A stretch of 15,413 nucleotides of DNA from Bdellovibrionia bacterium (GTDB taxonomy: Bacteria; Bdellovibrionota; UBA1018): positions 1-15,413 of the forward strand of contig JBJMMA010000173.1 in NCBI GenBank assembly GCA_045805065.1, read 5' to 3'. Each line of letters starts with the position of its first letter. Within the stretch, counting starts at the first letter, position 1. The notes under the pieces are model-generated. The model worked only from the letters and a program-made list of their open reading frames with translations. It had not been told where the DNA came from and did no database searches. Positions 215 to 14,206 of the stretch are shown piece by piece. Both the position numbers and the translations under genes were made by a program.

Positions 215-1570
215 ATGAAAAAGCCGAACCTTGTTACCGCACTGTTTTTCGTCTTAGGCACCTTAGTCATCTCAGGGGGACTCTGCTCAGCTGCACCCAA
301 CACGCAACAGCAGCCCATCGCGCTCTCGCTCTCCATTCAGGACGCCGTCAAGCGCGCTCTGGATCGCAATCCGACCGTTCTTGCCAACCGCGAAAGAGTC
401 GAAGAAGCAAGCCATGCTTATTCCTACGCGGTCTCCCAGTTTCTTCCTAACCTTGCTGGAAACGCTTCAGCGTTCAAACAAAAGGCCGCGGTCAACGGAA
501 TCAGCGTTCCTTTTGGCGGCGAGTCTTATAATCAATACACTTTACAGCTGAAGCTGGTGCAGCCCCTCTATCAGGGCGGCGCGATCATGAGCGGACTTCA
601 TGCCGCCGAAAAAGAGCTCGATATCCGAAAGAAGGATCTTGAGATCTCCGAGCGCGATGTGACCGCGCAAGTGATCAATTCCTTTTATTCGGTCATGCTC
701 AATCAGCAGCTTCTGAACGTGCTCAATTACACGCTCAATGAAGAAAAACAGACTCAGGCACTCGTTGAGAAATACCAGAAGATCGGAAGAACCCAGCTTC
801 TGGACGTTCTTCAGATCAAAACGCAAGTCGCCCTCATCTATCCCCGGATCTCCACGGCCGAAAACCAGATGAAGTCATCCGCGTCCCAACTCATGAGCCT
901 GCTTCATGACAATCAGACTGAAGCGGTGAACCTGACAGGAGATCTGGTTTATATTGATCCCGTGACGGTCTCAAAAGTGCTTGCGATGAAAAGAGAGCGC
1001 CCCGAGCTTGCCAGAAGCCGGATCGTGATCGATCAGTTTGACGACAAGTCAACCGTCGCCCTGGCCACTTACAATCCATCCTTCAATCTGCAGGCGCTTT
1101 ACGGAAAGACCGCGAACTCGCAGAGCGATCTCTTGAACGATTTCTCAAACACCTGGTCCGTGGGATTTCAGCTGACTGTCCCGATCTTTTCAGGGCTTGC
1201 ATCCATTCATGAAAAGCGCGTTCTTGCTTCGCAGGAAAAGCAGCTTGAGTACAATCAGCAATCGCTTCTCGATAATCTGGCCTATAGCCAGGTGCAGGCC
1301 GAGCGAAACCTGGATGCGGCTGCCGCCGTTTTAAAGAGCTCCAAAGAAGCCTCCGAGTACTCGACCGCCTCCCTCAAGGAAGCCCAACGCGAATTTAAAA
1401 TGGCCACAAGCAGTTACACGCAGCTCAATACGTCGGAACAGAACTTCCTGGACGCCCAGACCCGGTTCATTGGCGCCAAATACGATTACATCGACGCTGT
1501 TACAAAATACTTTGTTTCTGCTGGCGTTCCGATCCATGAGCTCGTACAACTCCTGGCGACCGCGAAGTAA
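215..1570 (+). CDS. TolC-family outer membrane efflux protein (451 aa)
   Basis: Signal peptide; LSIQDAVKRALDRNP N-terminal motif; two OEP repeats (FLPNLAGNAS...LKLVQPLYQGG and YNPSFNLQA...WSVGFQLTVPIFSG); ERPEL motif; long coiled-coil helices. Confidence 0.92.
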   Translation: MKKPNLVTALFFVLGTLVISGGLCSAAPNTQQQPIALSLSIQDAVKRALDRNPTVLANRERVEEASHAYSYAVSQFLPNLAGNASAFKQKAAVNGISVPFGGESYNQYTLQLKLVQPLYQGGAIMSGLHAAEKELDIRKKDLEISERDVTAQVINSFYSVMLNQQLLNVLNYTLNEEKQTQALVEKYQKIGRTQLLDVLQIKTQVALIYPRISTAENQMKSSASQLMSLLHDNQTEAVNLTGDLVYIDPVTVSKVLAMKRERPELARSRIVIDQFDDKSTVALATYNPSFNLQALYGKTANSQSDLLNDFSNTWSVGFQLTVPIFSGLASIHEKRVLASQEKQLEYNQQSLLDNLAYSQVQAERNLDAAAAVLKSSKEASEYSTASLKEAQREFKMATSSYTQLNTSEQNFLDAQTRFIGAKYDYIDAVTKYFVSAGVPIHELVQLLATAK

Positions 1571-1594: not shown

Positions 1595-2959
1595 ATGCGT
1601 TTTAATGATGATGACAATGCCAAGCTCTTGCTAGACACTATCCCCCGCGTGATGCACTCCATCCGCGAGGAAATGCGGGGAGTCGCCCGCGGAAAGTTCA
1701 CCGTTCCGCAGTTTCGCATCCTCAATCAGCTTCGAAAGCGCCCTCTGACCAACAGCGAGCTTGCCGAGTGGATGGGCGTCACCGCACCCACCATGTCCCG
1801 CATGCTAGAGCCTCTTGAAGAAAAGGGCCTGATTGTCCGCACCTACAATCCCAATGACCGCAGATCGCAATCGCTCTCCCTCACTGCCACGGGAAAGCGT
1901 GAGGCCGAGAAAATCCGCCGTCAGGCTCTGGAGAGCTTCGCCGCTCGAACTGAAAAGCTTTCCAGCGAGGAGAGCCATACTCTCGCCAGCGGTTTGAAAG
2001 TTTTAGCCAAAATGTTTGATGACGATGCAAACGATGCTCCTGCCGAAAGGACTAAATCCAGCATGAAAACCAAATCCGTGACTCTGATGATGCTTGTGGC
2101 ACTTGCCTCTTCGATCTCCTCTTGCATGGGCGACAGGACGACCGAAGATTACGCCAATGAGCAATCCCGTAAAGAGCAGGCAAAACTTCAGGAAATCGCC
2201 GGCACCTACAGAGGCAATCTGGTTTCCAATGAGACCGGGCAATCGCTCGGAACCCTCACCCTTCAACTCGATAGCTACACCGACGTCCAGAACTCATCGG
2301 ATGGTCTGACCAAGATCCAGGTTCCTGTCGCGAAAGGTACTCTCTTTTACAGCGGCATCAACAGGTCGCAGATCAACTTTGATAAATATTACTACGACTC
2401 AAACTCCAAGCTTCTTCAGATCCAGGTTCCTATCGTGGATGCTTCGAAGACCACTCAGATCCTCTCACTCCGCGGCACTTTCAGTGGAGATCAGCTGACG
2501 GGTGACATCGAGGCGCTCGGAGGCTATTCCAGCTCATTCACCCTAGTCAAAAACGGTCCATTGGTCCAGGCTCAGAACCTGAACGCGATTCGGGGCGCTA
2601 CTGCAATCGCTGCAGGTGACGAAACTTTCGTCGGCACCGACAACACTTCCTACAAGCTCACGATTCAGTATCCAGGCGATAATACTCAGCAGCTTTTTAT
2701 GAACCTCTTCTTGCCTCAGCGCACTGTCACAGCGACGCTGATCATCGGCAGAACGAAGCTTGCTTTCACTTCCGCTATTCTCGATGAGCGCTATAACACG
2801 CTCAAAGGCGATGCCGTGTTCAACACGTATCCCATCGAGCTCCGCTGCACCAGAACAGGCCATGGAACTCCGGCCGAGAAATGGGATTGTCAAACCATGG
2901 CGGGAGACGCCGTAAACCATATCGTCTTCGGGCTGGCAAACAGCCTTCAGGCAAAATGA
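1595..2959 (+). CDS. MarR-family regulator (about aa 1-140) in frame with a lipoprotein (454 aa ORF)
   Basis: Winged HTH: TVPQFRILNQL...LTNSELAEWMGVTAPTMSRMLEPLEEKGLIVRTYNPNDRRSQSLSLTATG (DRR wing motif). No stop after the domain; the acidic linker DDDANDAPAE leads into a signal peptide. Confidence 0.85.
   Translation: MRFNDDDNAKLLLDTIPRVMHSIREEMRGVARGKFTVPQFRILNQLRKRPLTNSELAEWMGVTAPTMSRMLEPLEEKGLIVRTYNPNDRRSQSLSLTATGKREAEKIRRQALESFAARTEKLSSEESHTLASGLKVLAKMFDDDANDAPAERTKSSMKTKSVTLMMLVALASSISSCMGDRTTEDYANEQSRKEQAKLQEIAGTYRGNLVSNETGQSLGTLTLQLDSYTDVQNSSDGLTKIQVPVAKGTLFYSGINRSQINFDKYYYDSNSKLLQIQVPIVDASKTTQILSLRGTFSGDQLTGDIEALGGYSSSFTLVKNGPLVQAQNLNAIRGATAIAAGDETFVGTDNTSYKLTIQYPGDNTQQLFMNLFLPQRTVTATLIIGRTKLAFTSAILDERYNTLKGDAVFNTYPIELRCTRTGHGTPAEKWDCQTMAGDAVNHIVFGLANSLQAK
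2063..2959 (+). CDS. Putative lipoprotein from an internal in-frame start; beta-rich, possibly two lipocalin-like domains
   Basis: AAAGGA at 2046-2051, ATG at 2063, then MKTKSVTLMMLVALASSISSC: basic n-region, h-region and lipobox ISSC (Cys codon 2123-2125). The mature part starts with AGTYRG and has a C-terminal Cys pair. Confidence 0.7.
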   Translation: MKTKSVTLMMLVALASSISSCMGDRTTEDYANEQSRKEQAKLQEIAGTYRGNLVSNETGQSLGTLTLQLDSYTDVQNSSDGLTKIQVPVAKGTLFYSGINRSQINFDKYYYDSNSKLLQIQVPIVDASKTTQILSLRGTFSGDQLTGDIEALGGYSSSFTLVKNGPLVQAQNLNAIRGATAIAAGDETFVGTDNTSYKLTIQYPGDNTQQLFMNLFLPQRTVTATLIIGRTKLAFTSAILDERYNTLKGDAVFNTYPIELRCTRTGHGTPAEKWDCQTMAGDAVNHIVFGLANSLQAK

Positions 2960-2967
2960 GGTCAGGC

Positions 2968-3687
2968 ATGTTGAAAGCGAAATCTGCCTTACTTTGCCTG
3001 ATTGCACTGACCCCAGCTCTGACAATGGCGAGTCAAGCCCATGCCGGAGCAGTAGCTCAAGGCACCTATCAGGTCACCATTCCTAAAAGCCGGATCGAGA
3101 TGCCAAAGATGCCAGCGCCTCAGAGCCCTCGGGTTCCTGATCAGCTGGACTTAGGCGCCTCAAGCTGGGCTCCTCGCGGGTTCAGCTTAGCTAGCCGGAC
3201 AATGGACACCACGAATTTCTCTCGTGAAGGCGCGCCATCTTTCTACGTGAACTATTTAAAGTCCATCACGAATCTGGACGGCCTTTTCCTCAAGGCAGGA
3301 CTCAATTGGCTTTCTCTGAGCCGCTCAGGAAAGGTTGGAAGCGGATCCACTCCTGTATCAGAAAGCCAGGCCCTTCAACTCTTCTCGCTTCGTGCCGGCG
3401 CAGAATACGCTCCTTCTCTTCTTCAAGTCATGGGAGTCCAGCCTTACGCAGGGCTTGCGATTCTGCCTTCTTTGGGCATGACCGGTCGCTCGGCTTTTGA
3501 TGATGGCTCCAGTTATTTTGGGATTCCATTTGAGTACACAGCCGGAGCTCAGTTCGAGCTCTCCCGTTTTGGGCTTGGTTGGAATCAGGCAAGCCTGGAT
3601 CTTGGACTAACCGGCACTGCAGGCACCGTCGATCACTCAAGCGTTGCCGGGATCGGAATCAAGGGCGGAATCAGGGTGGCATTATGA
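2968..3687 (+). CDS. Putative outer-membrane beta-barrel protein
   Basis: GAGG at 2958-2961 precedes ATG 2968 (alternative ATG 2956 overlaps the upstream stop). Signal peptide ending AHA, Pro-rich linker, amphipathic strands (FSLRAGAEY, PYAGLAIL, YTAGAQF) and alternating C-terminal strand IGIKGGIRVAL. Confidence 0.7.
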   Translation: MLKAKSALLCLIALTPALTMASQAHAGAVAQGTYQVTIPKSRIEMPKMPAPQSPRVPDQLDLGASSWAPRGFSLASRTMDTTNFSREGAPSFYVNYLKSITNLDGLFLKAGLNWLSLSRSGKVGSGSTPVSESQALQLFSLRAGAEYAPSLLQVMGVQPYAGLAILPSLGMTGRSAFDDGSSYFGIPFEYTAGAQFELSRFGLGWNQASLDLGLTGTAGTVDHSSVAGIGIKGGIRVAL

Positions 3688-5066
3688 GAAAGTTTTTAGC
3701 AGTCTTCTTACTGACTATTTTTAGCTCACCAGCTTTGTCTGCATTCGCAGCAGACTCATCGGCCAAGACTATCGTACTGGACCCAGCAACTCTGAGAGCT
3801 CAGCTACTCAAAGGCAATCTCTCGCTCGTGCAGCAGGAGAAACTTGTCGAAGACGCAAAGACTTCCATCAGCGTAGCTCGCGCGGGCCTTTTTCCTTCCT
3901 TGAACCTTTCAGCTGCATTCAAGGGCAACTTCATTCTTTCTTCGATCGATTTTCTGGTCCCTTTTCTGATCCCATCCAACTGGGCGGAACTCGATCAGAA
4001 CAAGCATCTCTTTGAAGCTCAAAAACTTTCTTACAAAGCTCTTGAGCTCAATACCTATAGCTCCGCTCTGTCAGTCTATTTCAATGTCAGAAGCGATAAC
4101 GAGATCGCTCAACAGCACCTTCAACAAGCAAAAGATCTCAGGCAGATTGCCGACTATATCCAGAATGCGGCAAGTTTTGGCGTTGCTTCAGGCCAAGACG
4201 TCCAAAACGCGTTAGGCAATGCTGAAGCTGCTGAAGGTGAAGCCTCCAAGATGCAAGTCGCGATGATCAAAGAGCTCGCGGCGCTTCGCCAGATGCTAGG
4301 ACTCTCGCTCGACACCCAGATTCTCTTCTCAACCGATCAGTCAGCCGCCACTCTGGCTCCTTCCACCGTAGAGTCAGCGACTTCTCCTACCGATATTGCA
4401 AAAGCCGTGGATCGCTCTCTTTCCACCGGCCCTGAGCTTGCTCAAATCAATGAGTTGATCACTGCAGCAAAAGCAGGAACCTGGAGCAAAGCTTTCGGCT
4501 GGATCAATAGCGCTTCTTTGGAAGCATCTTCAGAAAACGGATCCAATGCCTCGTTCTCTAATCTTCAGGCTCGCGGCTCCGTCAGCCTGGGACTCGGAAT
4601 TTTCCCGGTCATTGAGCTCTCCCATCGCAACGTTCAGGAGATCCAGCTTCGTGCCGAAGCGCTTAGACAGGAAAACACTGAGATCCTTGAAGGCAGCATT
4701 CTTGCCACGCAGGAAGCTCAGAACGAGCTGGCTCATTTCTCCCGCGCTGAGGCCGCTCTAAAAGGCGCCTACGATGACGTACTCACCCAGTACCAGTTTG
4801 GCGTCGCGAACATCTACGACGTGCTGCAAGCGCATCAATCGCTTTCCGCTGCGGCGATCAACCGCATTCAGGCCGAGCTTGAAATCACGCTACTTCGCGT
4901 GACGCTTCATCGCACGATGCTGACCGACGAATTTGCGAAGATCCCGGACTGCGCAGCACAGAACCCGCCCGCGCCACAAAAGCGCGGAGGATTTTTCGGC
5001 AACCTTTTTGGCTCTCATAAAGATGAGAGCGGTCCCTCACTTCTTGAGATTTGCAGAGCGAAGTGA
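3684..5066 (+). CDS. Second, divergent TolC-family outer membrane protein
   Basis: ATGA overlap with the upstream stop (3684-3687); signal peptide MRKFLAVFLL...AFA; ARAGLFPSLNLS, GPEL and QYQFGVANIYDVLQA OEP-like motifs. Confidence 0.8.
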   Translation: MRKFLAVFLLTIFSSPALSAFAADSSAKTIVLDPATLRAQLLKGNLSLVQQEKLVEDAKTSISVARAGLFPSLNLSAAFKGNFILSSIDFLVPFLIPSNWAELDQNKHLFEAQKLSYKALELNTYSSALSVYFNVRSDNEIAQQHLQQAKDLRQIADYIQNAASFGVASGQDVQNALGNAEAAEGEASKMQVAMIKELAALRQMLGLSLDTQILFSTDQSAATLAPSTVESATSPTDIAKAVDRSLSTGPELAQINELITAAKAGTWSKAFGWINSASLEASSENGSNASFSNLQARGSVSLGLGIFPVIELSHRNVQEIQLRAEALRQENTEILEGSILATQEAQNELAHFSRAEAALKGAYDDVLTQYQFGVANIYDVLQAHQSLSAAAINRIQAELEITLLRVTLHRTMLTDEFAKIPDCAAQNPPAPQKRGGFFGNLFGSHKDESGPSLLEICRAK

Positions 5067-6454: not shown

Positions 6455-6605
6455 AAAGAAGCACTCCTGCCTATCGTGGGTTAAATTTGCGGCTCTTATA
6501 ACAGAAATAGTTGTAAAAAACAGTCAAGATTAAACAAAACCACGCAACGCAGCAAAATACCTGATTATATTGTCTAATTCGGGCAATCGATGTACGAGAG
6601 GCAAA
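6455..6605. promoter_or_regulatory. AT-rich divergent promoter region
   Basis: Intergenic gap between divergent operons; minus-strand extended -10-like TGTTATAAG (6503-6495); RBS GAGAGG at 6596-6601. Exact promoter boxes are uncertain. Confidence 0.5.
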
Positions 6606-7649
6606 ATGCGTGTTGGAATTACCGGCGCCAACGGTTTCATCGGCAATCACCTTCTCAGATCCGCTCTAGCTCATCGAGTTCATGGTTCTCGTCCTGTTGT
6701 TTTCCTGCAGCGAGGATCCTCCACGCGCCCCTTTGAAGATATTCCAACCGATCATTATACCGCGTTCTGGGGCGACCTTTTAGACAAAGAAAGCCTGGAC
6801 GCGTTTATCAGCCAGTGCGACGTGGTCTTTCACCTCGCCGGCTTTAATCGCTATTGGTCGCAAAACCCGAACGTCTTCCTCGATGTTAATCTTGAGGGAG
6901 CAAAGAATGTCGCTGAAGCCTGCCTCAAACACGGCGTAAAGAAGCTGATTCACGTCAGCAGCTGCGTGACCTTGGGAGCATCACTGGATCCCACTCCTCG
7001 CAATGAAGACGCCGAATTCAACCTCAAGGGAGTGCGCTTCCCTTACGCTGAAACCAAAAAGGCTGGCGAAGACCTCATCCTCTCTTATGTGAAAGAGCGC
7101 GCTCTGCCTGCGGTCATCGTTCATCCAACGTCCGCAATCGGTGAGCAGGATTTTGGCCCAACACCGATTGGAAAACCCATCGCCGATATCAGCAAAGGTA
7201 AATGGCCCGTCTATGTCGCGGGGGGCGCATGTTTTATCGATGTTCATGACGTGGTTCGCGGTTTGTGGCTTGCGATGGAACGCGGACGCATCGGTGAAAA
7301 ATATCTTTTTGCCGGAGAAAACCTGACAAACCAGCAGTTCATGACCCTGGTGGCCGAATGCGCGGGCGTTCCAAAGCCCAAGATGAAAGTCCCTCTGCCG
7401 CTTCTCAAGGGTGTGGCCTGGACCGCCGAATTTGCAGCGGATCGCATCACACGCAAAGAGCCAGTTTTGACCGTGGGAATGACTGCACTCATCGGCAAGT
7501 ATCTCTACTTTGACGGAAGCAAGGCTGAGCGAGAGCTTGGTTTTAAAGCAGGTCCTGCGGCACCCGCCATTCAGCGCTGCATTGATTGGTTCAGAGCCCA
7601 GGAAGCTACTCAAAACGCTGCTGAGCCTCTCCTAGGGGCTGCACAATGA
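6606..7649 (+). CDS. hpnA: HpnA-like hopanoid-associated NAD-dependent epimerase/dehydratase (extended SDR)
   Basis: TGANGFIG; FHLAGFNRYW; SSCVTLG; YAETK catalytic motif; VHPTSAIGEQDFGPTPIG resembles the HpnA NPSTPIGPxDxKPTPTG motif; hpnH is nearby. ATG 6606 has an RBS. Confidence 0.7.
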   Translation: MRVGITGANGFIGNHLLRSALAHRVHGSRPVVFLQRGSSTRPFEDIPTDHYTAFWGDLLDKESLDAFISQCDVVFHLAGFNRYWSQNPNVFLDVNLEGAKNVAEACLKHGVKKLIHVSSCVTLGASLDPTPRNEDAEFNLKGVRFPYAETKKAGEDLILSYVKERALPAVIVHPTSAIGEQDFGPTPIGKPIADISKGKWPVYVAGGACFIDVHDVVRGLWLAMERGRIGEKYLFAGENLTNQQFMTLVAECAGVPKPKMKVPLPLLKGVAWTAEFAADRITRKEPVLTVGMTALIGKYLYFDGSKAERELGFKAGPAAPAIQRCIDWFRAQEATQNAAEPLLGAAQ

Positions 7650-8686
7650 GTCAGAAACAAATTGCATTAATCACTGGCGCCACAGGCTTTATCGGTAGCC
7701 ACCTGGCTCAAAGGCTTTTGAAAGAAGGCCATAGCGTCCGCGTTCTTTGCCGCCAGGAGAGCCAGGGAAAACTCCTTTCGGACATTGCGACAAAAGCGCA
7801 GATTGCTCTGGGAAACCTGAAAGACCAGAACTCCTTGGAGCAGGCCATGCAGGGGGTAACTCACGTGTACCACTGCGCAGGCCAGGTCCTGGATTGGGGC
7901 TCGGATCAGGAATTTAACGCAACCAATATCCAGGGCACCGCATGGCTCTTGGAGAGTGCTGCACGCGCTCAAGTGAAGCGCTTTGTCCATCTCAGCACAG
8001 TGGCAGTCTTTGGAGTTCCGTCTCCAGCGAAATTTGATGACGAGACCCCTTACGGGTCAAGCCAGGATCCTTATTCCCGCACCAAGATTGAAGGCGAGAA
8101 AGTCGCGCTCAAAGCCCATCGCGAAAAAGGCGTACCTGTGACCGTTTTACGCCCAACCGTGGTGTATGGCGCGCGCAGCACCTGGCTGGAAGAGCCCCTT
8201 CGCATGATCCAAAAAGGGAAAATGTTCCTCTTGGATCGCGGAAACGGCACTTGCCACCCCTGCTATATTGAGAATTTGATCGATGCGATGATCCTGGTTG
8301 CAGAGCATCCTGCCGCGGTCGGACAAGCTTATCTCATTGGAGATGATGACCCGATTCCGTTTTCCCGCTATTTTCAAGGCGTTGCATCGCTTGCCGGTCA
8401 AGGCCCGATTAAACGCTCCATTCCTCTGAGCGTTGCCCGGGCAATGGCAACCACTTTTGAGGCTGCGGCGCGTTTAACTCGCTCTGCTTCACGTCCTTTG
8501 TTGACTCATACGGCGATCGACATGGTATGTACGCGAAGTCAAATGTCGATGGATAAAATCCGCCGTGAACTTGGCTACCGTCCGCGTTACCGCTTTGACC
8601 AGGCCATTCAAGAACTTCGCAGCGTTTACAGAACTTCGGATTTGAACCTAAACCGGGACCAGGTTCCCAACGCAAATTTAATTTGA
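7646..8686 (+). CDS. Extended SDR, NAD-dependent epimerase/dehydratase or 3-beta-hydroxysteroid-dehydrogenase-like (346 aa)
   Basis: TGATGFIG, HCAG, HLST, YSRTK, LRPTVVYG motifs; ATGA overlap with the hpnA-like gene. Confidence 0.88.
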   Translation: MSQKQIALITGATGFIGSHLAQRLLKEGHSVRVLCRQESQGKLLSDIATKAQIALGNLKDQNSLEQAMQGVTHVYHCAGQVLDWGSDQEFNATNIQGTAWLLESAARAQVKRFVHLSTVAVFGVPSPAKFDDETPYGSSQDPYSRTKIEGEKVALKAHREKGVPVTVLRPTVVYGARSTWLEEPLRMIQKGKMFLLDRGNGTCHPCYIENLIDAMILVAEHPAAVGQAYLIGDDDPIPFSRYFQGVASLAGQGPIKRSIPLSVARAMATTFEAAARLTRSASRPLLTHTAIDMVCTRSQMSMDKIRRELGYRPRYRFDQAIQELRSVYRTSDLNLNRDQVPNANLI

Positions 8687-8713
8687 ACTTTATTTACTCA
8701 ATAGGAGATCACG

Positions 8714-9763
8714 ATGGGAATTCCAGTTAAACAAGCCATGTCTGTCGGCAGCTACGTGATGAAGCAGAAGCTCATGAGGAACAAACGTTACCCTCTCGTC
8801 ATGATGCTCGAGCCACTCTTCAAGTGTAACCTCGCATGCGGCGGCTGCGGCAAGATCCAGTACCCAGACGAAATTCTGAAGAAGATGCTCACGCCTGAGC
8901 AATGCTTTGCTGCGGCTGAAGAGTGCGGCGCTCCAGTGATCTCCATCGCCGGCGGCGAACCTCTCATCCACCCACAGATGAAGGAAATCGTTGAAGGTCT
9001 GATCGCTCGCAAGAAGTTCATCTACCTCTGCACGAACGCCCTCTTGCTCAAGCGCAAGATGGACATGTTCACGCCAAGTGATTACCTCACCTTCAGCATC
9101 CATCTCGACGGCATCAAGGAACACCATGACAAGTGCGTGGACCGTGAAGGCGTTTATGAGACCGCGATCGAAGCGATCAAGGAAGCCAAAAAGCGCGGCT
9201 TCCGCATCACAACCAACACCACGGTTTTCCAGGGCCACCCACCTGAGCATCTCCATCAGTTCTTTGACAAGATGATGGAGCTTGGCGTGGACGGCATGAT
9301 GATGTCTCCAGGCTACAGCTACGAAAAAGCGCCAGACCAGGACAAGTTCCTCAAGCGCGAAAAGACAAAGCAGCTTTTCCGCGAGATCCTGGCGCCGATG
9401 CATTCCGGAAAGAAGAACTGGGTGTTCAATCACTCCCCATTCTTTCTCGACTTCCTCGAAGGAAAGCGTGACTACGAGTGCACCCCTTGGGGCAATCCGA
9501 ACTACAACGTGTTCGGCTGGCAACGCCCTTGCTACCTCTTCAGTGAGCAAGGCTACGCCAAGACCTTCAAGGAGCTCATGGAAACCACTGAGTGGGAGAA
9601 GTACGGAACCGGTCGCCATCCAAAATGCGCGGACTGCATGGTTCACTGTGGATACGAGCCAACGGCTGTCAACGACAGCATGGCCTCTCCAAAGAACATG
9701 CTGGCCTCGATGAAGTCGGCTTTCAAAAAAGCCCCTTCTCGCTCACCTGAGATGAACGCGTAA
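8714..9763 (+). CDS. hpnH: Adenosylhopane-forming radical SAM enzyme HpnH (349 aa)
   Basis: [26 protein letters not shown] (CxxxCxxC), [31 protein letters not shown]...GWQRPCYL and [15 protein letters not shown], all characteristic of HpnH; strong RBS TAGGAG. Confidence 0.95.
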
Positions 9764-9772
9764 TCGAGAACC

Positions 9773-10822
9773 ATGGATCGTAAAGACAGTCACATATCGA
9801 TCTGTCTGGAAAAGGATATCGAACTCTACACGGAGAATTCGAACGGATTCTCCGCGTGGAGTTTCGAGCATGACGCCCTTCCAGAGATCGATTTTTCAGC
9901 CATCAGCCTGGAGACCACGGTCTTAGGTAAAAAACTTCGGGCTCCACTGATCATCGGTGCGATGACCGGGGGGACGGTGCGCGCCGGCGAGATCAATCGC
10001 AGGCTCGCGCTTGCGGCTGAAAAGTGCCAGGTCGGCATCGCGTTGGGCTCGCAGCGCAAGATGATCGGCGAGAGCCGCGACTCGGCTGTGACGAAAAGCT
10101 ATGCGGTCCGTGAGCATGCTCCTGCCGTTCCCCTGCTTTTAGGAAACATCGGCGCCGTTCAGCTCAACTATGGCGTAACTGCCGCCCAGATCCGTGCCCT
10201 GATCGAGAACTCAGGATGCGACGCCTTCAATTTCCATCTCAATCCTCTTCAGGAAGCGGTTCAGCCTGAAGGTGATCGGGATTTCTCAAGCCTTCTTCCC
10301 AAGATGCGGGACGTGATCCCGTCCTTGGGTGTTCCGGTTTTAATCAAGGAAGTCGGCTCTGGAATCTCGGCGCGCACCGCCCGGAAGCTCAAAACTCTTC
10401 CGATCGCGGGCGTGGAAACCGCAGGTGCCGGTGGCACGTCCTGGTCGAAAATTGAAGCCTATCGCAGCTCTACGGCAGATCGTCAGCACTTGGGTCAGCT
10501 CTTTGCCCGCTGGGGAGTTCCCACTGCCGACAGCGTTATCGCCTGCCGTCAAGAGCTCCCGGATACCACGCTGATCGCCTCTGGCGGGATCCGGAACGGA
10601 ATTGAGATTGCAAAGGCCATCGCACTGGGGGCAGACGCTGCAGCCACTGCGTTACCGATTCTGAAAGCAGCAGAACGCTCGACAGAAGACGCGATCGCCG
10701 CGATCGAGCAGATTATTCTGGAGCTGAGAACCGCACTTTTTGTCACTGGAATATCTTCGATTGAAGAGCTCAAGCGCGAAGGCCGCTCTGTGCTCAAGCA
10801 AAGGCTCATCCATGTCAGCTAA
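9773..10822 (+). CDS. fni: Type 2 (FMN-dependent) isopentenyl-diphosphate isomerase
   Basis: RKDSHI, HDALPE, AMTGG, GSQR, NIGAVQL, HLNPLQEAVQPEGDRDF, KEVGSG, GGTSW, SGGIRNG motifs. Confidence 0.96.
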   Translation: MDRKDSHISICLEKDIELYTENSNGFSAWSFEHDALPEIDFSAISLETTVLGKKLRAPLIIGAMTGGTVRAGEINRRLALAAEKCQVGIALGSQRKMIGESRDSAVTKSYAVREHAPAVPLLLGNIGAVQLNYGVTAAQIRALIENSGCDAFNFHLNPLQEAVQPEGDRDFSSLLPKMRDVIPSLGVPVLIKEVGSGISARTARKLKTLPIAGVETAGAGGTSWSKIEAYRSSTADRQHLGQLFARWGVPTADSVIACRQELPDTTLIASGGIRNGIEIAKAIALGADAAATALPILKAAERSTEDAIAAIEQIILELRTALFVTGISSIEELKREGRSVLKQRLIHVS

Positions 10823-11867
10823 GATCAACATCCACGCTACTGCAGAACATTGTCTGCCTCGGATTGAGTCAGCGATGGAGGATTTCCTCAAGCGCTCCGA
10901 GCAAGAGGGAATCCGCTTCAACGCTGAGATGACCCGTTATCATCTCGCAAGTGGCGGAAAGCGCCTGCGAGCCCTGATGCCTTGCTGGGTTTTTGAGGCG
11001 TGCGGAAAAGACCCCATGGCAGCCATCTCATTGGGCTGCGCTCTTGAAATGGTCCATAACGCGACTCTCGTTCACGACGACCTTCAAGATGGTGATGTGA
11101 TGCGCCGTGGTTTTCCCACGGTCTGGAAAAAGTGGTCTCCGGCACAAGCCATCAATTGTGGTGACGTCATGTTCCAATTCGCGTTGGAACTTCTGCTTGA
11201 GCAACCGATGGAAGCATCCACTGCTCGCAGTATCACCCGCCGATTCCTCACCGGCATCTCGCAAGTCATCGAGGGTCAGGCGCAGGAGTTTCTCCTGAAG
11301 GATGAAGAGCTTCCGACCCTTGCTCGTTATATTCAGGTGGTCGAAGGAAAAACCGCAGCTCTTGTTGCGACCGCTCTGAGCATTGCCGTTCAAGCCCTGG
11401 GCAAAGATAAACGCGTCATCGCTGATGTCGAGCAGGCCGGAATGGATCTCGGCGTTCTCTTTCAGATGCAAGACGACGTTCTCGATGTTTACGGTGACAA
11501 GGGTCGGGACCAGAAAGCAACAGACATCGCGGAAGGCAAGATCAGTATCCTTGTCGCTCAATGCTTGGAGAGCGCAAACAGCTCGGATCAAATGCGGATT
11601 CTTGAAGTACTTCGCAAGCCACGCGAGCAAACGAGCGCTCAGGAGATTTCTGAAGTCGTCGCGCTCTTTGATCGCTATGAAACGCTTTCCAAGGTTTTGA
11701 GCAAAATCGCTGAGCTCCGCTCGCGAATCGCCAATCTTGAACTCAAAACGACCGAACCCAAGCTGCACGCTCTCCTGGTGGATCTTGGGGAGCTCTTTTT
11801 GAAACCGATCGCTCATCTAGTCGAGGCGGCCCCGCCGCTACGCTCTTCCAAGGAGATACGCTCATGA
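10812..11867 (+). CDS. trans-Polyprenyl diphosphate synthase (chain length uncertain)
   Basis: GGKRLR, FARM HNATLVHDDLQDGD-x2-RRG, GQ, KT, SARM FQMQDDVLD, DIAEGK. ATG 10812 overlaps the 3' end of fni. Confidence 0.93.
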   Translation: MSAKINIHATAEHCLPRIESAMEDFLKRSEQEGIRFNAEMTRYHLASGGKRLRALMPCWVFEACGKDPMAAISLGCALEMVHNATLVHDDLQDGDVMRRGFPTVWKKWSPAQAINCGDVMFQFALELLLEQPMEASTARSITRRFLTGISQVIEGQAQEFLLKDEELPTLARYIQVVEGKTAALVATALSIAVQALGKDKRVIADVEQAGMDLGVLFQMQDDVLDVYGDKGRDQKATDIAEGKISILVAQCLESANSSDQMRILEVLRKPREQTSAQEISEVVALFDRYETLSKVLSKIAELRSRIANLELKTTEPKLHALLVDLGELFLKPIAHLVEAAPPLRSSKEIRS

Positions 11868-13171
11868 CGGTGAGTTTTCGGCATCTGACCCAAGACGAGC
11901 GCCACGAGTATCTGAAAGCTCATTGTGCTTTGACAGACGAGGAAGTCGCGCTTCTCAAGGGCGCCCCTCTTCCTGCAACCATCGCAGATCATCTCATTGA
12001 GAATTCAGTCGGCTATTTTCAACTGCCCATGGGTATTGCGACCCATTTCAAGATTGATGGCAAAGAACGTCTGATTCCGATGGTCGTTGAAGAGACTTCC
12101 ATTATCGCCGCGGCAAGCGCCATGGCAAAATGGGTCCGAAGCACCGGCGAGCTCACCACCCGGATGCAGGGAAAGCTCATCATTGGCCAGATCCAGCTTC
12201 CACGCGTTTTAAAGCCAGAACAGGCCAGGGCGCTACTCGAAGCTGAGATCCCTTTGCTCATTGTCATGGCCAATCGCATGCTTCCAGGACTTGTGAACCG
12301 CGGCGGCGGCGTTCGCGAGATCAAGATCCGCGAGCTGAAACGCCCCGACGATGGGCAGGCGATGATGGTCATCCACATCCTTTGCGATCCCTGTGATGCC
12401 ATGGGAGCAAACCTCATCAACCAGGTTTGCGAAGCGCTCAAGCCTGAAATCGCGCGCATCACGGGCGAAACGGTTGGCCTCTGCATTCTGTCCAACCTCG
12501 TGGACGATAAGCTTGCGATTGCCGATGTCGTGATCCGGAACATCGACCCACAGATTGCTGAAGGAATCGTTGAGGCTGCACTTTTTGCGCACGCCGACCC
12601 TTATCGCGCGGCAACGCATAATAAAGGCATCTTGAACGGAATTGATCCGATTCTGATTGCCACAGGAAATGACTGGCGCGCTGTGGAGGCTGGCGCTCAT
12701 GCCTATGCAGCACGCTCGGGCTCGTATCAGCCAATGACGCGCTGGTGGCGCGAAGGCTCAGATCTTCGTGGCCAGATTGAGCTTCCCATGGCAGTTGGCA
12801 CCGCCGGTGGCGTCACCCGGATCCATCCGATGGCAAAGCTTGCGCTTAAAATTCTCGGCGTTGAGAAGGCTGAAGACCTGGCGCGAATCTGTGCGGCAGT
12901 TGGCCTGATTCAAAACCTCGGAGCATTGAAAGCGTTGTCCACGGTCGGTATTGTTCGTGGCCATATGGAGCTTCATGCGTCCAATCTTGCCCTTGCTGCA
13001 GGCTCGACCGAAGAAGAAGTCGTTGAAGTGAAAAGCAGACTCACTGAGATGCTGAAAAATCGTCAGGGTATTGGCATCAGCGCGGCTCAGGAAGTTTTGC
13101 GAGAAATTCGCTCTCGCGCCCGCCCGGGCGCTGGAGCCACTGGAGCAGTTCTTAAAACGGAGGTCCGTTAA
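11864..13171 (+). CDS. mvaA: Class II HMG-CoA reductase
   Basis: ENSVG, PMVVEETSIIAAAS, DAMGAN, ILSN, THNKGILNG, GNDWRAVEAGAHAYA, QNLGAL and C-terminal GHMELH motifs; ATGA overlap. Confidence 0.96.
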   Translation: MTVSFRHLTQDERHEYLKAHCALTDEEVALLKGAPLPATIADHLIENSVGYFQLPMGIATHFKIDGKERLIPMVVEETSIIAAASAMAKWVRSTGELTTRMQGKLIIGQIQLPRVLKPEQARALLEAEIPLLIVMANRMLPGLVNRGGGVREIKIRELKRPDDGQAMMVIHILCDPCDAMGANLINQVCEALKPEIARITGETVGLCILSNLVDDKLAIADVVIRNIDPQIAEGIVEAALFAHADPYRAATHNKGILNGIDPILIATGNDWRAVEAGAHAYAARSGSYQPMTRWWREGSDLRGQIELPMAVGTAGGVTRIHPMAKLALKILGVEKAEDLARICAAVGLIQNLGALKALSTVGIVRGHMELHASNLALAAGSTEEEVVEVKSRLTEMLKNRQGIGISAAQEVLREIRSRARPGAGATGAVLKTEVR

Positions 13172-13174
13172 GAG

Positions 13175-14206
13175 ATGCGTGAGATCGAGTTCTATCAAAG
13201 TCATCTGGATGGCGTGAGCCGAAGCTTTGCTTTTTGTATCCAGAAGCTCGACTCCCCTTACCGCCAATGGATTTCTCTCTCTTACCTTCTTTGCCGAGTG
13301 CTCGACACCGTTGAGGACTCTCCTTGGAGCGATGTAACGAAAGGCGTCACCCTTCAGAACGCCCAGTACGCTGAGTTCAATCAGTTCATGGACAAGCTCC
13401 CAACGCGTGAGGCAACCGTTGCCTGGGCCAAGCGTTTTCCAGAAAGCATTCCAGAAGCTGAAAAGAAGGTGCTTCTGGATTCGTACGATCTTTTCAATGA
13501 TCTGCATGGTCTGCCAGAAAACGCTCGCGTGATCATTCAGAACACCGTTGGAAAGATGTTCCGCGGGATGCGCTATTACTCGAATCGTTCTGCCAGCGGC
13601 TCACTGAGACTGGCTGATCTCGCTGATGCGAACCGTTACTGCTACTTTGTCGCAGGCGTTGTCGGCGAGCTTCTTTCGCAGCTTTATGTGGTCTATCGCC
13701 CGGATTTCAAGCCAGGCCAGAAGTTCCACACGGACGCGCTTCACTTTGGCTTATTCCTGCAAAAAGTGAATCTCTTGAAAGATCAGCGCTCCGATGAGCG
13801 CGAAGGTCGTTATCTGGTTCCCGATCGCCAGGTCCTTCTCTCCAGCCTCAGAAAGAACGCTCGAGGCGCGATGGATTATCTCCTAGCCCTTCCTCAGGAC
13901 GAGCATGGCTATCGCACGTTTTGCGCGTGGTCTTTGTTCCTGGGTGCTGCATCGCTGCCTTATATGGAAAAGGCCTACGAGGCGGATGATGGTTCAAAGA
14001 TTCCACGCACCGTCACGCAGGATCTTTTGACGGCGATCGAAGACGTTGTCCAAGACAATGTGACTCTTGAGAATGCTTTCCAGGAGTACCTGCCTTTCAT
14101 TCCTGAGATGGCGCTTCCAAAGCCAACGGACTCGGGCGATTGGTTCCGGGATCTCACTGCGGGATCTTTGGGCCATACCGAGATGGCCGAGCTTGGGATG
14201 CTCTGA
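13175..14206 (+). CDS. Squalene synthase-like head-to-head synthase (farnesyl-diphosphate farnesyltransferase type)
   Basis: VSRSFA flap, YLLCRVLDTVED, YCYFVAGVVG, FGLFLQKVNLLKD...EGRYLVP and FCA motifs match single-enzyme squalene synthases better than CrtB, HpnC or HpnD. Confidence 0.85.
   Translation: MREIEFYQSHLDGVSRSFAFCIQKLDSPYRQWISLSYLLCRVLDTVEDSPWSDVTKGVTLQNAQYAEFNQFMDKLPTREATVAWAKRFPESIPEAEKKVLLDSYDLFNDLHGLPENARVIIQNTVGKMFRGMRYYSNRSASGSLRLADLADANRYCYFVAGVVGELLSQLYVVYRPDFKPGQKFHTDALHFGLFLQKVNLLKDQRSDEREGRYLVPDRQVLLSSLRKNARGAMDYLLALPQDEHGYRTFCAWSLFLGAASLPYMEKAYEADDGSKIPRTVTQDLLTAIEDVVQDNVTLENAFQEYLPFIPEMALPKPTDSGDWFRDLTAGSLGHTEMAELGML

Follow-up and report, generated by a model that had tools for sequence, protein, structure and literature searches.

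What does a bacterial gene make when a MarR-type regulator runs, with no stop codon in between, into a complete lipoprotein precursor? The question is raised by an open reading frame (ORF) on contig JBJMMA010000173.1 of a Bdellovibrionia bacterium (GenBank assembly GCA_045805065.1). The stretch analyzed, hereafter the window, is 15,413 nucleotides (nt) long and represents the whole of that contig (C173), one of the 262 contigs of a genome (G000) that is an estimated 94% complete. MarR regulators are commonly described as soluble dimers of small size, and the signals of lipoproteins are held to be strictly N-terminal. The initial annotation of the locus had offered three explanations for the unusual frame, namely that it gives two products, that processing by Lgt and LspA at the internal lipobox separates the regulator from the exported part, or that it reflects a recent stop loss or an assembly error. 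We consider it probable, though by no means certain, that an inherited fusion yields two products, a free prolipoprotein and a chain of 454 amino acids (aa) that would be the sole form of MarR and would be tethered by the signal peptide with its N terminus inside the cell.

The frame at 1595..2959 (+) was open throughout, from MarR to the lipoprotein. As the initial annotation had noticed, the MarR part has no stop of its own before the lipoprotein part (MKTKSVTLMMLVALASSISSC) and reads directly into the lipoprotein signal. A search of 5.8 billion proteins returned four more proteins with the same arrangement, P0003 (455 aa, 88% identity), P0004 (454 aa, 83%), P0005 (469 aa, 59%) and P0006 (472 aa, 58%), which were the only matches besides the query among 8000 scored candidates. 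Searching for longer proteins with the MarR half found the same five fused proteins only, and a protein search with the lipoprotein half at near lengths gave three proteins and no further fused or split forms. The fusion was also present in G001, a genome of the same genus (65% identity over aa 2-349, the rest being cut off by the contig end), bringing the number of distinct fused sequences to six. Among 75 genomes of the taxonomic family, one frame over both halves was found only in G000 and G001. Contig scans yielded one locus in the metagenome collection (L023, described below) and one in the genome collection (L024); the latter encodes the same partial protein as G001 and was counted once with it. 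This genome has no other copy of the lipoprotein family than the fused ORF. The family otherwise consists of stand-alone lipoproteins, and among the 150 best representatives of 274 matches (E <= 0.001), the window's protein alone offers space for a domain before the signal.

Judged from these sequences, the fusion is genuine and belongs to a limited set of uncultured soil bacteria of the predatory type. A sequencing or assembly artifact, or a pseudogene, is scarcely credible. The assembly is fragmented and read depth at the junction is low, which would leave room for such an error, but six distinct sequences from different assemblies are fused, with differing junction nucleotides, and both halves are under purifying selection (see below). 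The junction nucleotides differ between the window and G001 in particular, so that this is not one sequence assembled repeatedly. Logan contigs of two separately assembled runs, X2 (1943-2136) and X3 (1985-2141), span the junction and agree with the window, showing 0 differences, 0 gaps and thus neither an indel nor a stop; the depth there is 2.6 to 2.9, and both runs, like all those holding the stretch, are soil metagenomes from one study and may include the source sample. Not all close homologues encode MarR and the lipoprotein as separate genes, and the fusion is neither recent nor an assembly error, because sequences that are 58-88% identical share it and synonymous divergence between the window and G001 approaches saturation. 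Only the stop loss thus survives from the third of the initial explanations.

The first half of the protein was examined for completeness. The Pfam MarR model (PF01047) matched aa 36-91 with 52.6 bits against a cutoff of 24.6, and a MarR-type NCBIfam model aligned aa 19-144 with its positions 16-142 of 143. Pfam matches for aa 36-109 were to MarR and other helix-turn-helix families only, and Trans_reg_C was not among them. In an AlphaFold2 (AF2) model of the full-length protein, the MarR part consisted of helices 5-31, 37-48, 53-60 and 64-76, a wing at 80-96, and helices 98-120 and 124-145, with a mean pLDDT per 10-residue block of 80 for aa 1-10 and of 91-97 for aa 11-140. The predicted six-helix fold is thus complete, including the N- and C-terminal helices (5-31 and 98-145) that flank the winged helix-turn-helix and that form the dimer interface in MarR proteins. 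In a structure search of the Atlas, aa 1-149 superposed on whole stand-alone MarR proteins of 147-176 aa, with TM scores of 0.70-0.85 by target; a feature search of the same resource yielded no usable match. By sequence and predicted fold, this half is a bona fide MarR.

The two halves are joined by a short linker whose number of residues was equal in every fused sequence. Its identity to that of the window was just 55-64% in P0004-P0006, and pLDDT values fell below 50 for aa 148-166. Against this variable background, Asp147, Glu151, Arg152, Ser156 and Met157 were invariant in the six fused sequences, and the residue after Glu-Arg was always Thr, Asn or Lys in the fused proteins, the codons for all of which begin with A. 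The ribosome-binding site (2046-2051, AAAGGA) and ATG (2063-2065) that the initial annotation had assigned to the lipoprotein both held up, and the former proved to be part of a conserved 7-mer, GAAAGGA. This Shine-Dalgarno (SD) sequence and the ATG were identical in the three of three DNA sequences available, which represent two fused lineages and one split one, L023. In L023 they must serve the lipoprotein gene, because the genes are separate there. The end of AGGA lies 11 nt from the ATG, as at MarR's own start. In a crude ORF set of this genome, GAAAGG or AAAGGA stood 5-20 nt before the ATG in 33 of 16293 cases where that ATG was internal and in frame, versus 86 of 2332 first ATGs of long ORFs.

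The segment that follows the internal ATG has the features of a lipoprotein precursor, namely a positively charged n-region (MKTK), an h-region (SVTLMMLVALASS) and a lipobox (ISSC), the last in keeping with the rule [LVI][ASTVI][GAS]C. It begins at residue 157 of the 454-aa chain and is N-terminal only in the product of the internal start at 2063. Met157 and Cys177 (codon 2123-2125) were invariant in the fused forms, and the Cys was at least 90% conserved over 87 family members. Compared with split relatives, the signal peptide has been neither lengthened nor stripped of its lipobox in the fused forms, and members of the stand-alone family begin with the same kind of signal. These sequence features make the internally initiated product a bona fide lipoprotein precursor. 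When the genome was scanned crudely for internal segments resembling lipoprotein signals, 4 of 3785 ORFs of at least 200 aa were picked out, and among those four the fused ORF alone had the order of a domain followed by a lipoprotein signal. Two of the other three contained ordinary transmembrane helices, and the third was a noncoding read-through upstream of a normal lipoprotein start. The out-of-frame stops noticed initially, TGATGA (2017-2022) and TAA (2053-2055), are present as described. The weight given to them was misplaced, as G001 lacks stops in that frame across the linker, so that they have no meaning. A programmed frameshift leading to these stops was discarded on the same grounds, neither TGATGA nor TAA being conserved in G001, and no shared slippery site was seen.

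The origin of the fusion could be read from the closest split form, L023, a metagenome contig of 1098 nt with 72% identity. Its MarR ends with Thr-Glu-Arg-Thr followed by TAA, and the lipoprotein starts 7 bases further on in another frame (MSTKSLSLLMLFTFAASISGC). L023 reads GAAAGGACT-TAA-GCTTATT-ATG, where the window reads GAAAGGACT-AAATCCAGC-ATG and is one base shorter. The aligned junctions are GAAAGGACTTAAGCTTATTATG for L023, GAAAGGAC-TAAATCCAGCATG for the window and GAAAGGAA-CAAGCCCAGCATG for G001. A deletion of 1 nt between the SD and the ATG would therefore account for the loss of TAA and the joining of the frames, and this comparison of sequences shows the fusion to be a stop loss. More distant relatives, too, have MarR and the lipoprotein as separate neighboring genes. 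G033 has a MarR of 155 aa and a stop before a lipoprotein with its own start; in G093 MarR ends at the last helix and a 75-nt gap precedes the lipoprotein; and in G022 the lipoprotein directly follows a gene for an outer-membrane efflux protein (OEP), with no MarR between them. Other MarR genes of the bacterial family stop a few residues past the last helix, and most of the examples inspected (L007, L010, L011, L012 and L016) have a MarR stop that overlaps the start of the next gene as ATGA or GTGA. That next gene is RND-pump-like in L010, L014 and L016 and outer-membrane-efflux-like in L011, L012 and L020. Tight coupling of MarR to the downstream gene is therefore the local norm, making a fusion by one base easy. 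In the tree of the lipoprotein part, L023 was sister to a clade with all fused sequences (support 82/98), and in the best tree from concatenated halves without the linker columns, the six fused sequences formed one clade, with L023 as its sister (67/96). A single fusion event is the simplest reading of these trees.

We then compared the two halves for signs of selection. Between the window and G001, the MarR part had a nonsynonymous divergence (dN) of 0.18 and a synonymous divergence (dS) of 1.86, a ratio of about 0.1, and the mature lipoprotein had a dN of 0.33 with saturated dS. MarR was the best-conserved part among the fused proteins, with 71-92% identity compared with 51-87% for the mature lipoprotein. 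The frame was open and in register in all six sequences, which represent four lineages of the tree (window/P0003/P0004, P0005, P0006 and G001). As MarR has no stop, any MarR molecule necessarily arises as the leading part of a long chain. Since MarR is under selection even though it is made only in fused form, the long chain is not a dead by-product, and it appears from these substitution patterns to be a working repressor. The conserved SD and ATG, the unaltered signal, the otherwise stand-alone nature of the family and the sole copy in the genome together make internal initiation likely, suggesting that a free lipoprotein is probably still made from position 2063. Among the initial explanations, two products from one locus thus fits best, with a ribosome-binding site and an ATG conserved in a variable linker and a MarR under purifying selection.

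These data are consistent with the following scenario. In the ancestor, the last codons of the MarR gene would have held the SD of the next gene, which encoded an outer-membrane-type lipoprotein, with TAA in the spacer before the ATG. One base lost in that spacer would have removed the stop and brought the frames into register, while the lipoprotein would have kept its ribosome-binding site, ATG, signal peptide and lipobox. Two products would result, a free prolipoprotein from 2063 and the 454-aa read-through chain. In the latter, the signal peptide would serve as a membrane segment with an N-in/C-out orientation, which is predicted because Arg152, Lys154, Lys158 and Lys160 precede the h-region. 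The MarR dimer would sit on the cytoplasmic face, held by a flexible tether of about 15 residues on its C-terminal helix, with the two-barrel domain exported. In MarR crystal structures the C-terminal helix lies in the dimerization region, away from the DNA-binding wings, and DNA binding by a tethered MarR is therefore geometrically conceivable. Lgt and LspA would process Cys177, and MarR would stay attached to a signal-peptide stub pending removal by signal-peptide proteases. Such processing is the default expectation, because the signal is unmodified and the genome has one gene for LspA, two for Lgt and two for M50 proteases. The second of the initial explanations, a cut by Lgt and LspA at the internal lipobox, is thus plausible, given the invariant Cys and these genes. 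We infer membrane insertion, cleavage and any effect on repression of the OEP operon from the sequences. The two Lgt genes of G000, on contigs C212 and C252, are both full length, compared with one gene for LspA.

Several observations weigh against parts of this scenario. The 11-nt spacing of AGGA and ATG is on the long side of the distribution in this genome, which peaks at 6-10 nt. The case for internal initiation is made from conservation only, and Glu-Arg and Met could in principle have been kept for a protein-level reason. The h-region comprises only about 15-17 residues, with an intact lipobox, and has low confidence in the AF2 model. A prefolded N-terminal domain of 155 aa may hinder Sec targeting and the action of Lgt and LspA. 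As to the history of the fusion, a tree of MarR alone paired L023 with G001 (86/87), a placement that was not rejected (p-AU 0.27), so that a re-splitting or two separate fusions may have occurred. P0007 and P0008 fell inside the fused clade in the lipoprotein tree, with recorded N termini cut within the signal peptide. The placement of the split form next to, or possibly inside, the fused clade, the single base that separates the two states and the fast evolution of the linker would also suit a near-neutral, tolerated accident. MarR would then work as a soluble or loosely membrane-associated chimera or as a degradation product, the lipoprotein would come from the internal start only, and no new regulation would arise. 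We regard this as improbable, as the frame has stayed open in four lineages despite heavy turnover of linker residues; by rough arithmetic, a random stretch of 13 codons is free of stops with p ~0.53, giving ~0.08 for four lineages.

The remaining alternatives concern the fate of the long chain in the membrane. It might be a stable bitopic sensor of the ToxR kind, whose periplasmic two-barrel domain would sense a signal and control DNA binding by MarR, the lipobox being unused in the long form. A DNA-binding domain in the cytoplasm, followed by a single hydrophobic segment and then an exported domain, would agree with such a sensor, as would the maintenance of the fusion over long divergence. 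We nevertheless find it distinctly improbable, since the chain's hydrophobic segment has the usual form of a short lipoprotein signal and has gained no length over that of split relatives, no change is seen in the lipobox Cys, the SD or the ATG, and the exported domain comes from a large family of stand-alone lipoproteins. A different possibility extends the two-product reading by making LspA a site-1 protease. After the cut at Cys177, an M50 (RseP-type) or SppA-type protease would cut the stub and free or destroy MarR, so that lipoprotein maturation or Sec capacity would be read out through repression of the OEP operon. Proteases of the RseP type are known to remove signal peptides, and the signal peptides of lipoproteins are the source from which Enterococcus pheromones are cut. 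The invariant Cys and unaltered signal peptide in all fused forms, the presence of LspA, Lgt and M50 protease genes and selection on a MarR made only in this way are all compatible with it. Still, we deem it rather unlikely, as the retained internal start would supply lipoprotein without any need for the long chain and the split relatives work with a free MarR, so that the operon requires no such coupling. A transcription factor gated by lipoprotein maturation, in which MarR would arise as the N-terminal extension of a prolipoprotein, Sec would insert it, LspA would cut at the lipobox and an RseP-type protease would free or destroy the regulator by cutting the remaining signal peptide, thereby tuning an outer-membrane channel operon to the capacity for envelope biogenesis, seems quite unlikely. 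If maturation gating were true, signal peptidase II would be the site-1 protease of a pathway of regulated intramembrane proteolysis.

We then compared the favored two-product gene with known systems. ToxR, CadC and TcpP are membrane-integrated one-component regulators that combine an N-terminal cytoplasmic winged-helix DNA-binding domain with a single membrane segment and, at the C terminus, a periplasmic domain, and that have neither kinase nor receiver. The long chain shares this order of parts, its topology being predicted from the charges before the h-region. It differs in that its DNA-binding domain is of the MarR type whereas theirs is of the OmpR/PhoB type, its membrane segment takes the form of a lipoprotein signal of the cleavable type, lipobox included, and its exported part belongs to a stand-alone lipoprotein family and has retained its own start. 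The long chain is therefore alike in architecture but is not a member of the ToxR/CadC family. Canonical MarR repressors of efflux operons are soluble dimers of about 140-160 aa. The fused ORF shares with them the full fold in aa 1-145 and the setting in an operon for outer-membrane efflux, and related genes in the same bacterial family lie directly before RND or OEP genes. Unlike them, its MarR lacks a stop and runs into a signal peptide and an exported domain of 277 aa. The stand-alone two-barrel lipoproteins of the family (for example P0009, P0010 and those of G033, G022 and G093) share the signal peptide, an N terminus with Cys-x-x-Asp ... Asp-Tyr, the barrels, the Cys pair and a downstream secreted protein, but they begin at the signal peptide, and MarR stands in front only in the window's clade. 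Searches of full-text literature found no membrane-tethered MarR and no internal lipobox, which is weak evidence, as several searches were swamped by 'marrow' and subscription journals were outside their scope.

The clade has thus kept, over long divergence, a gene whose repressor comes only attached to a lipoprotein signal peptide. In an arrangement where ribosome-binding site and stop overlap, the loss of one base would have created a new multidomain membrane protein with the original product kept. Should insertion and cleavage of the chain take place as the sequence suggests, the fused gene would provide a natural case of a transcription factor anchored by a cleavable signal peptide. Such a system could be used to ask whether Lgt and LspA act on internal signals and whether the clearance of signal peptides carries regulatory information.

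The exported domain was predicted to form two barrels, and the AF2 model of the lipoprotein had a mean pLDDT of 90.1 and a pTM of 0.83. Cys418 and Cys432 of the ORF (C262 and C276 of the half) were at least 90% conserved, a conserved Cys pair being as expected for an exported protein. The best Foldseek matches were a Bacteroides putative outer-membrane protein (3rwx), BFA1, HpuA and hemophilin, with E values of 2e-5 to 1e-3 and global TM scores of 0.2-0.3. VIA-align gave Z scores of 8-11 per barrel with avidins, designed barrels, OmpW, a Cap15 receptor and the LbpB and hemophilin barrel lobes, and of 7-9 with TbpB, fHbp, NHBA and HpuA. Each barrel thus shares its fold class with the TbpB and LbpB lobes, HpuA, fHbp, NHBA, hemophilin and Bacteroides BF2706 (PDB 3rwx). 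Generic eight-stranded barrels (avidins, designed barrels and OmpW) scored as high as these surface lipoproteins and hemophores or higher (Z 9-11), and sequence identity was 7-16% in the Foldseek matches cited and 2-20% over 50 VIA-align matches. The modeled barrels therefore define a fold class only, and no function is transferable from these matches. The NCBIfam model for BamJ (NF053689) was rejected, as it reached 20.6 bits against a cutoff of 100 and covered the first 58 residues only. Long members of the family (P0014, P0025, P0028 and others; 440-846 aa) contain two to five repeats of the C-terminal barrel module, with its Cys...Trp-x-Cys signature. In P0034 (159 aa), the first ~73 residues resemble the N terminus of OEP no. 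2 of the window and the rest resembles the last barrel, with 52% identity to aa 194-291 of the half; P0034 represents a deletion variant or else an assembly chimera joining both genes.

The fused ORF sits within a tightly packed operon on the + strand, in which it is preceded by one OEP gene and followed by genes for a small secreted protein and a second OEP (Table 1).

Table 1. Features of the efflux operon and of the fused ORF in the window
Feature	Coordinates	Strand	Basis
OEP no. 1, outer-membrane efflux protein (TolC/OEP family), first operon gene	215..1570	+	Pfam OEP PF02321, E 1.9e-42
Fused ORF, 454 aa: MarR, linker and lipoprotein precursor	1595..2959 (stop codon included)	+	Translation; full-length homologues P0003-P0006, partial homologue G001
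Complete MarR domain, aa 1-145, six helices and beta wing	1595..2029	+	Pfam, AF2, structure search
Linker, aa 146-156 (11 aa)	2030..2062	+	Variable sequence, constant length, predicted disordered
GAAAGGA, putative SD of the lipoprotein start, within codons Glu151-Arg152-Thr153	2045..2051	+	Identical in window, G001 and split L023 DNA
Internal ATG and lipoprotein signal peptide, aa 157-177: MKTK / h-region SVTLMMLVALASS / lipobox I-S-S-Cys177	2063..2125	+	Sequence inspection, conservation
Mature lipoprotein: N-terminal helix and two 8-stranded beta-barrel domains, Cys418/Cys432 pair (predicted)	2126..2956	+	AF2, fold searches
Small secreted protein, 239 aa, signal peptide	2968..3687	+	Translation; without Pfam or NCBIfam match
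OEP no. 2, outer-membrane efflux protein (OEP family)	3684..5066	+	Pfam OEP, E 2.4e-16

The stop of OEP no. 1 lies 24 nt before the fused ORF. NCBIfam models of TolC/NodT subfamilies scored under their own cutoffs with this protein, and the same gene precedes the fused ORF in G001 and MarR in G033. Homologues of the 239-aa secreted protein are encoded directly 3' of the lipoprotein gene in G022 (E 2e-10), G093 (E 2e-16) and also G033, and this protein may be a small outer-membrane partner of the lipoprotein. It carries a conserved SSWAP-GFSL motif. The likely start of OEP no. 2 is the ATG at 3684, which overlaps the stop of the preceding gene; in translation, MRKFLAVF, with a signal peptide, is found at residue 36 of the longer ORF.

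Upstream of OEP no. 1, an inverted repeat, GATTCACAGCTGAATC (145-160, 6-4-6), overlaps the -35-like hexamer of the only promoter-like site. It was considered as a candidate MarR operator and set aside, as 19 of 200 shuffled sequences matched with at most one mismatch, which is not significant, and it was not found in L024. Further downstream, positions 6570-14206 of the window contain a run of + strand genes for two NAD-dependent epimerase/dehydratases, a radical-SAM protein with DUF3463, an FMN-dependent dehydrogenase-like protein, a polyprenyl synthetase, an HMG-CoA reductase and a squalene/phytoene synthase, which looks like a cluster for mevalonate and triterpenoid-type lipids.

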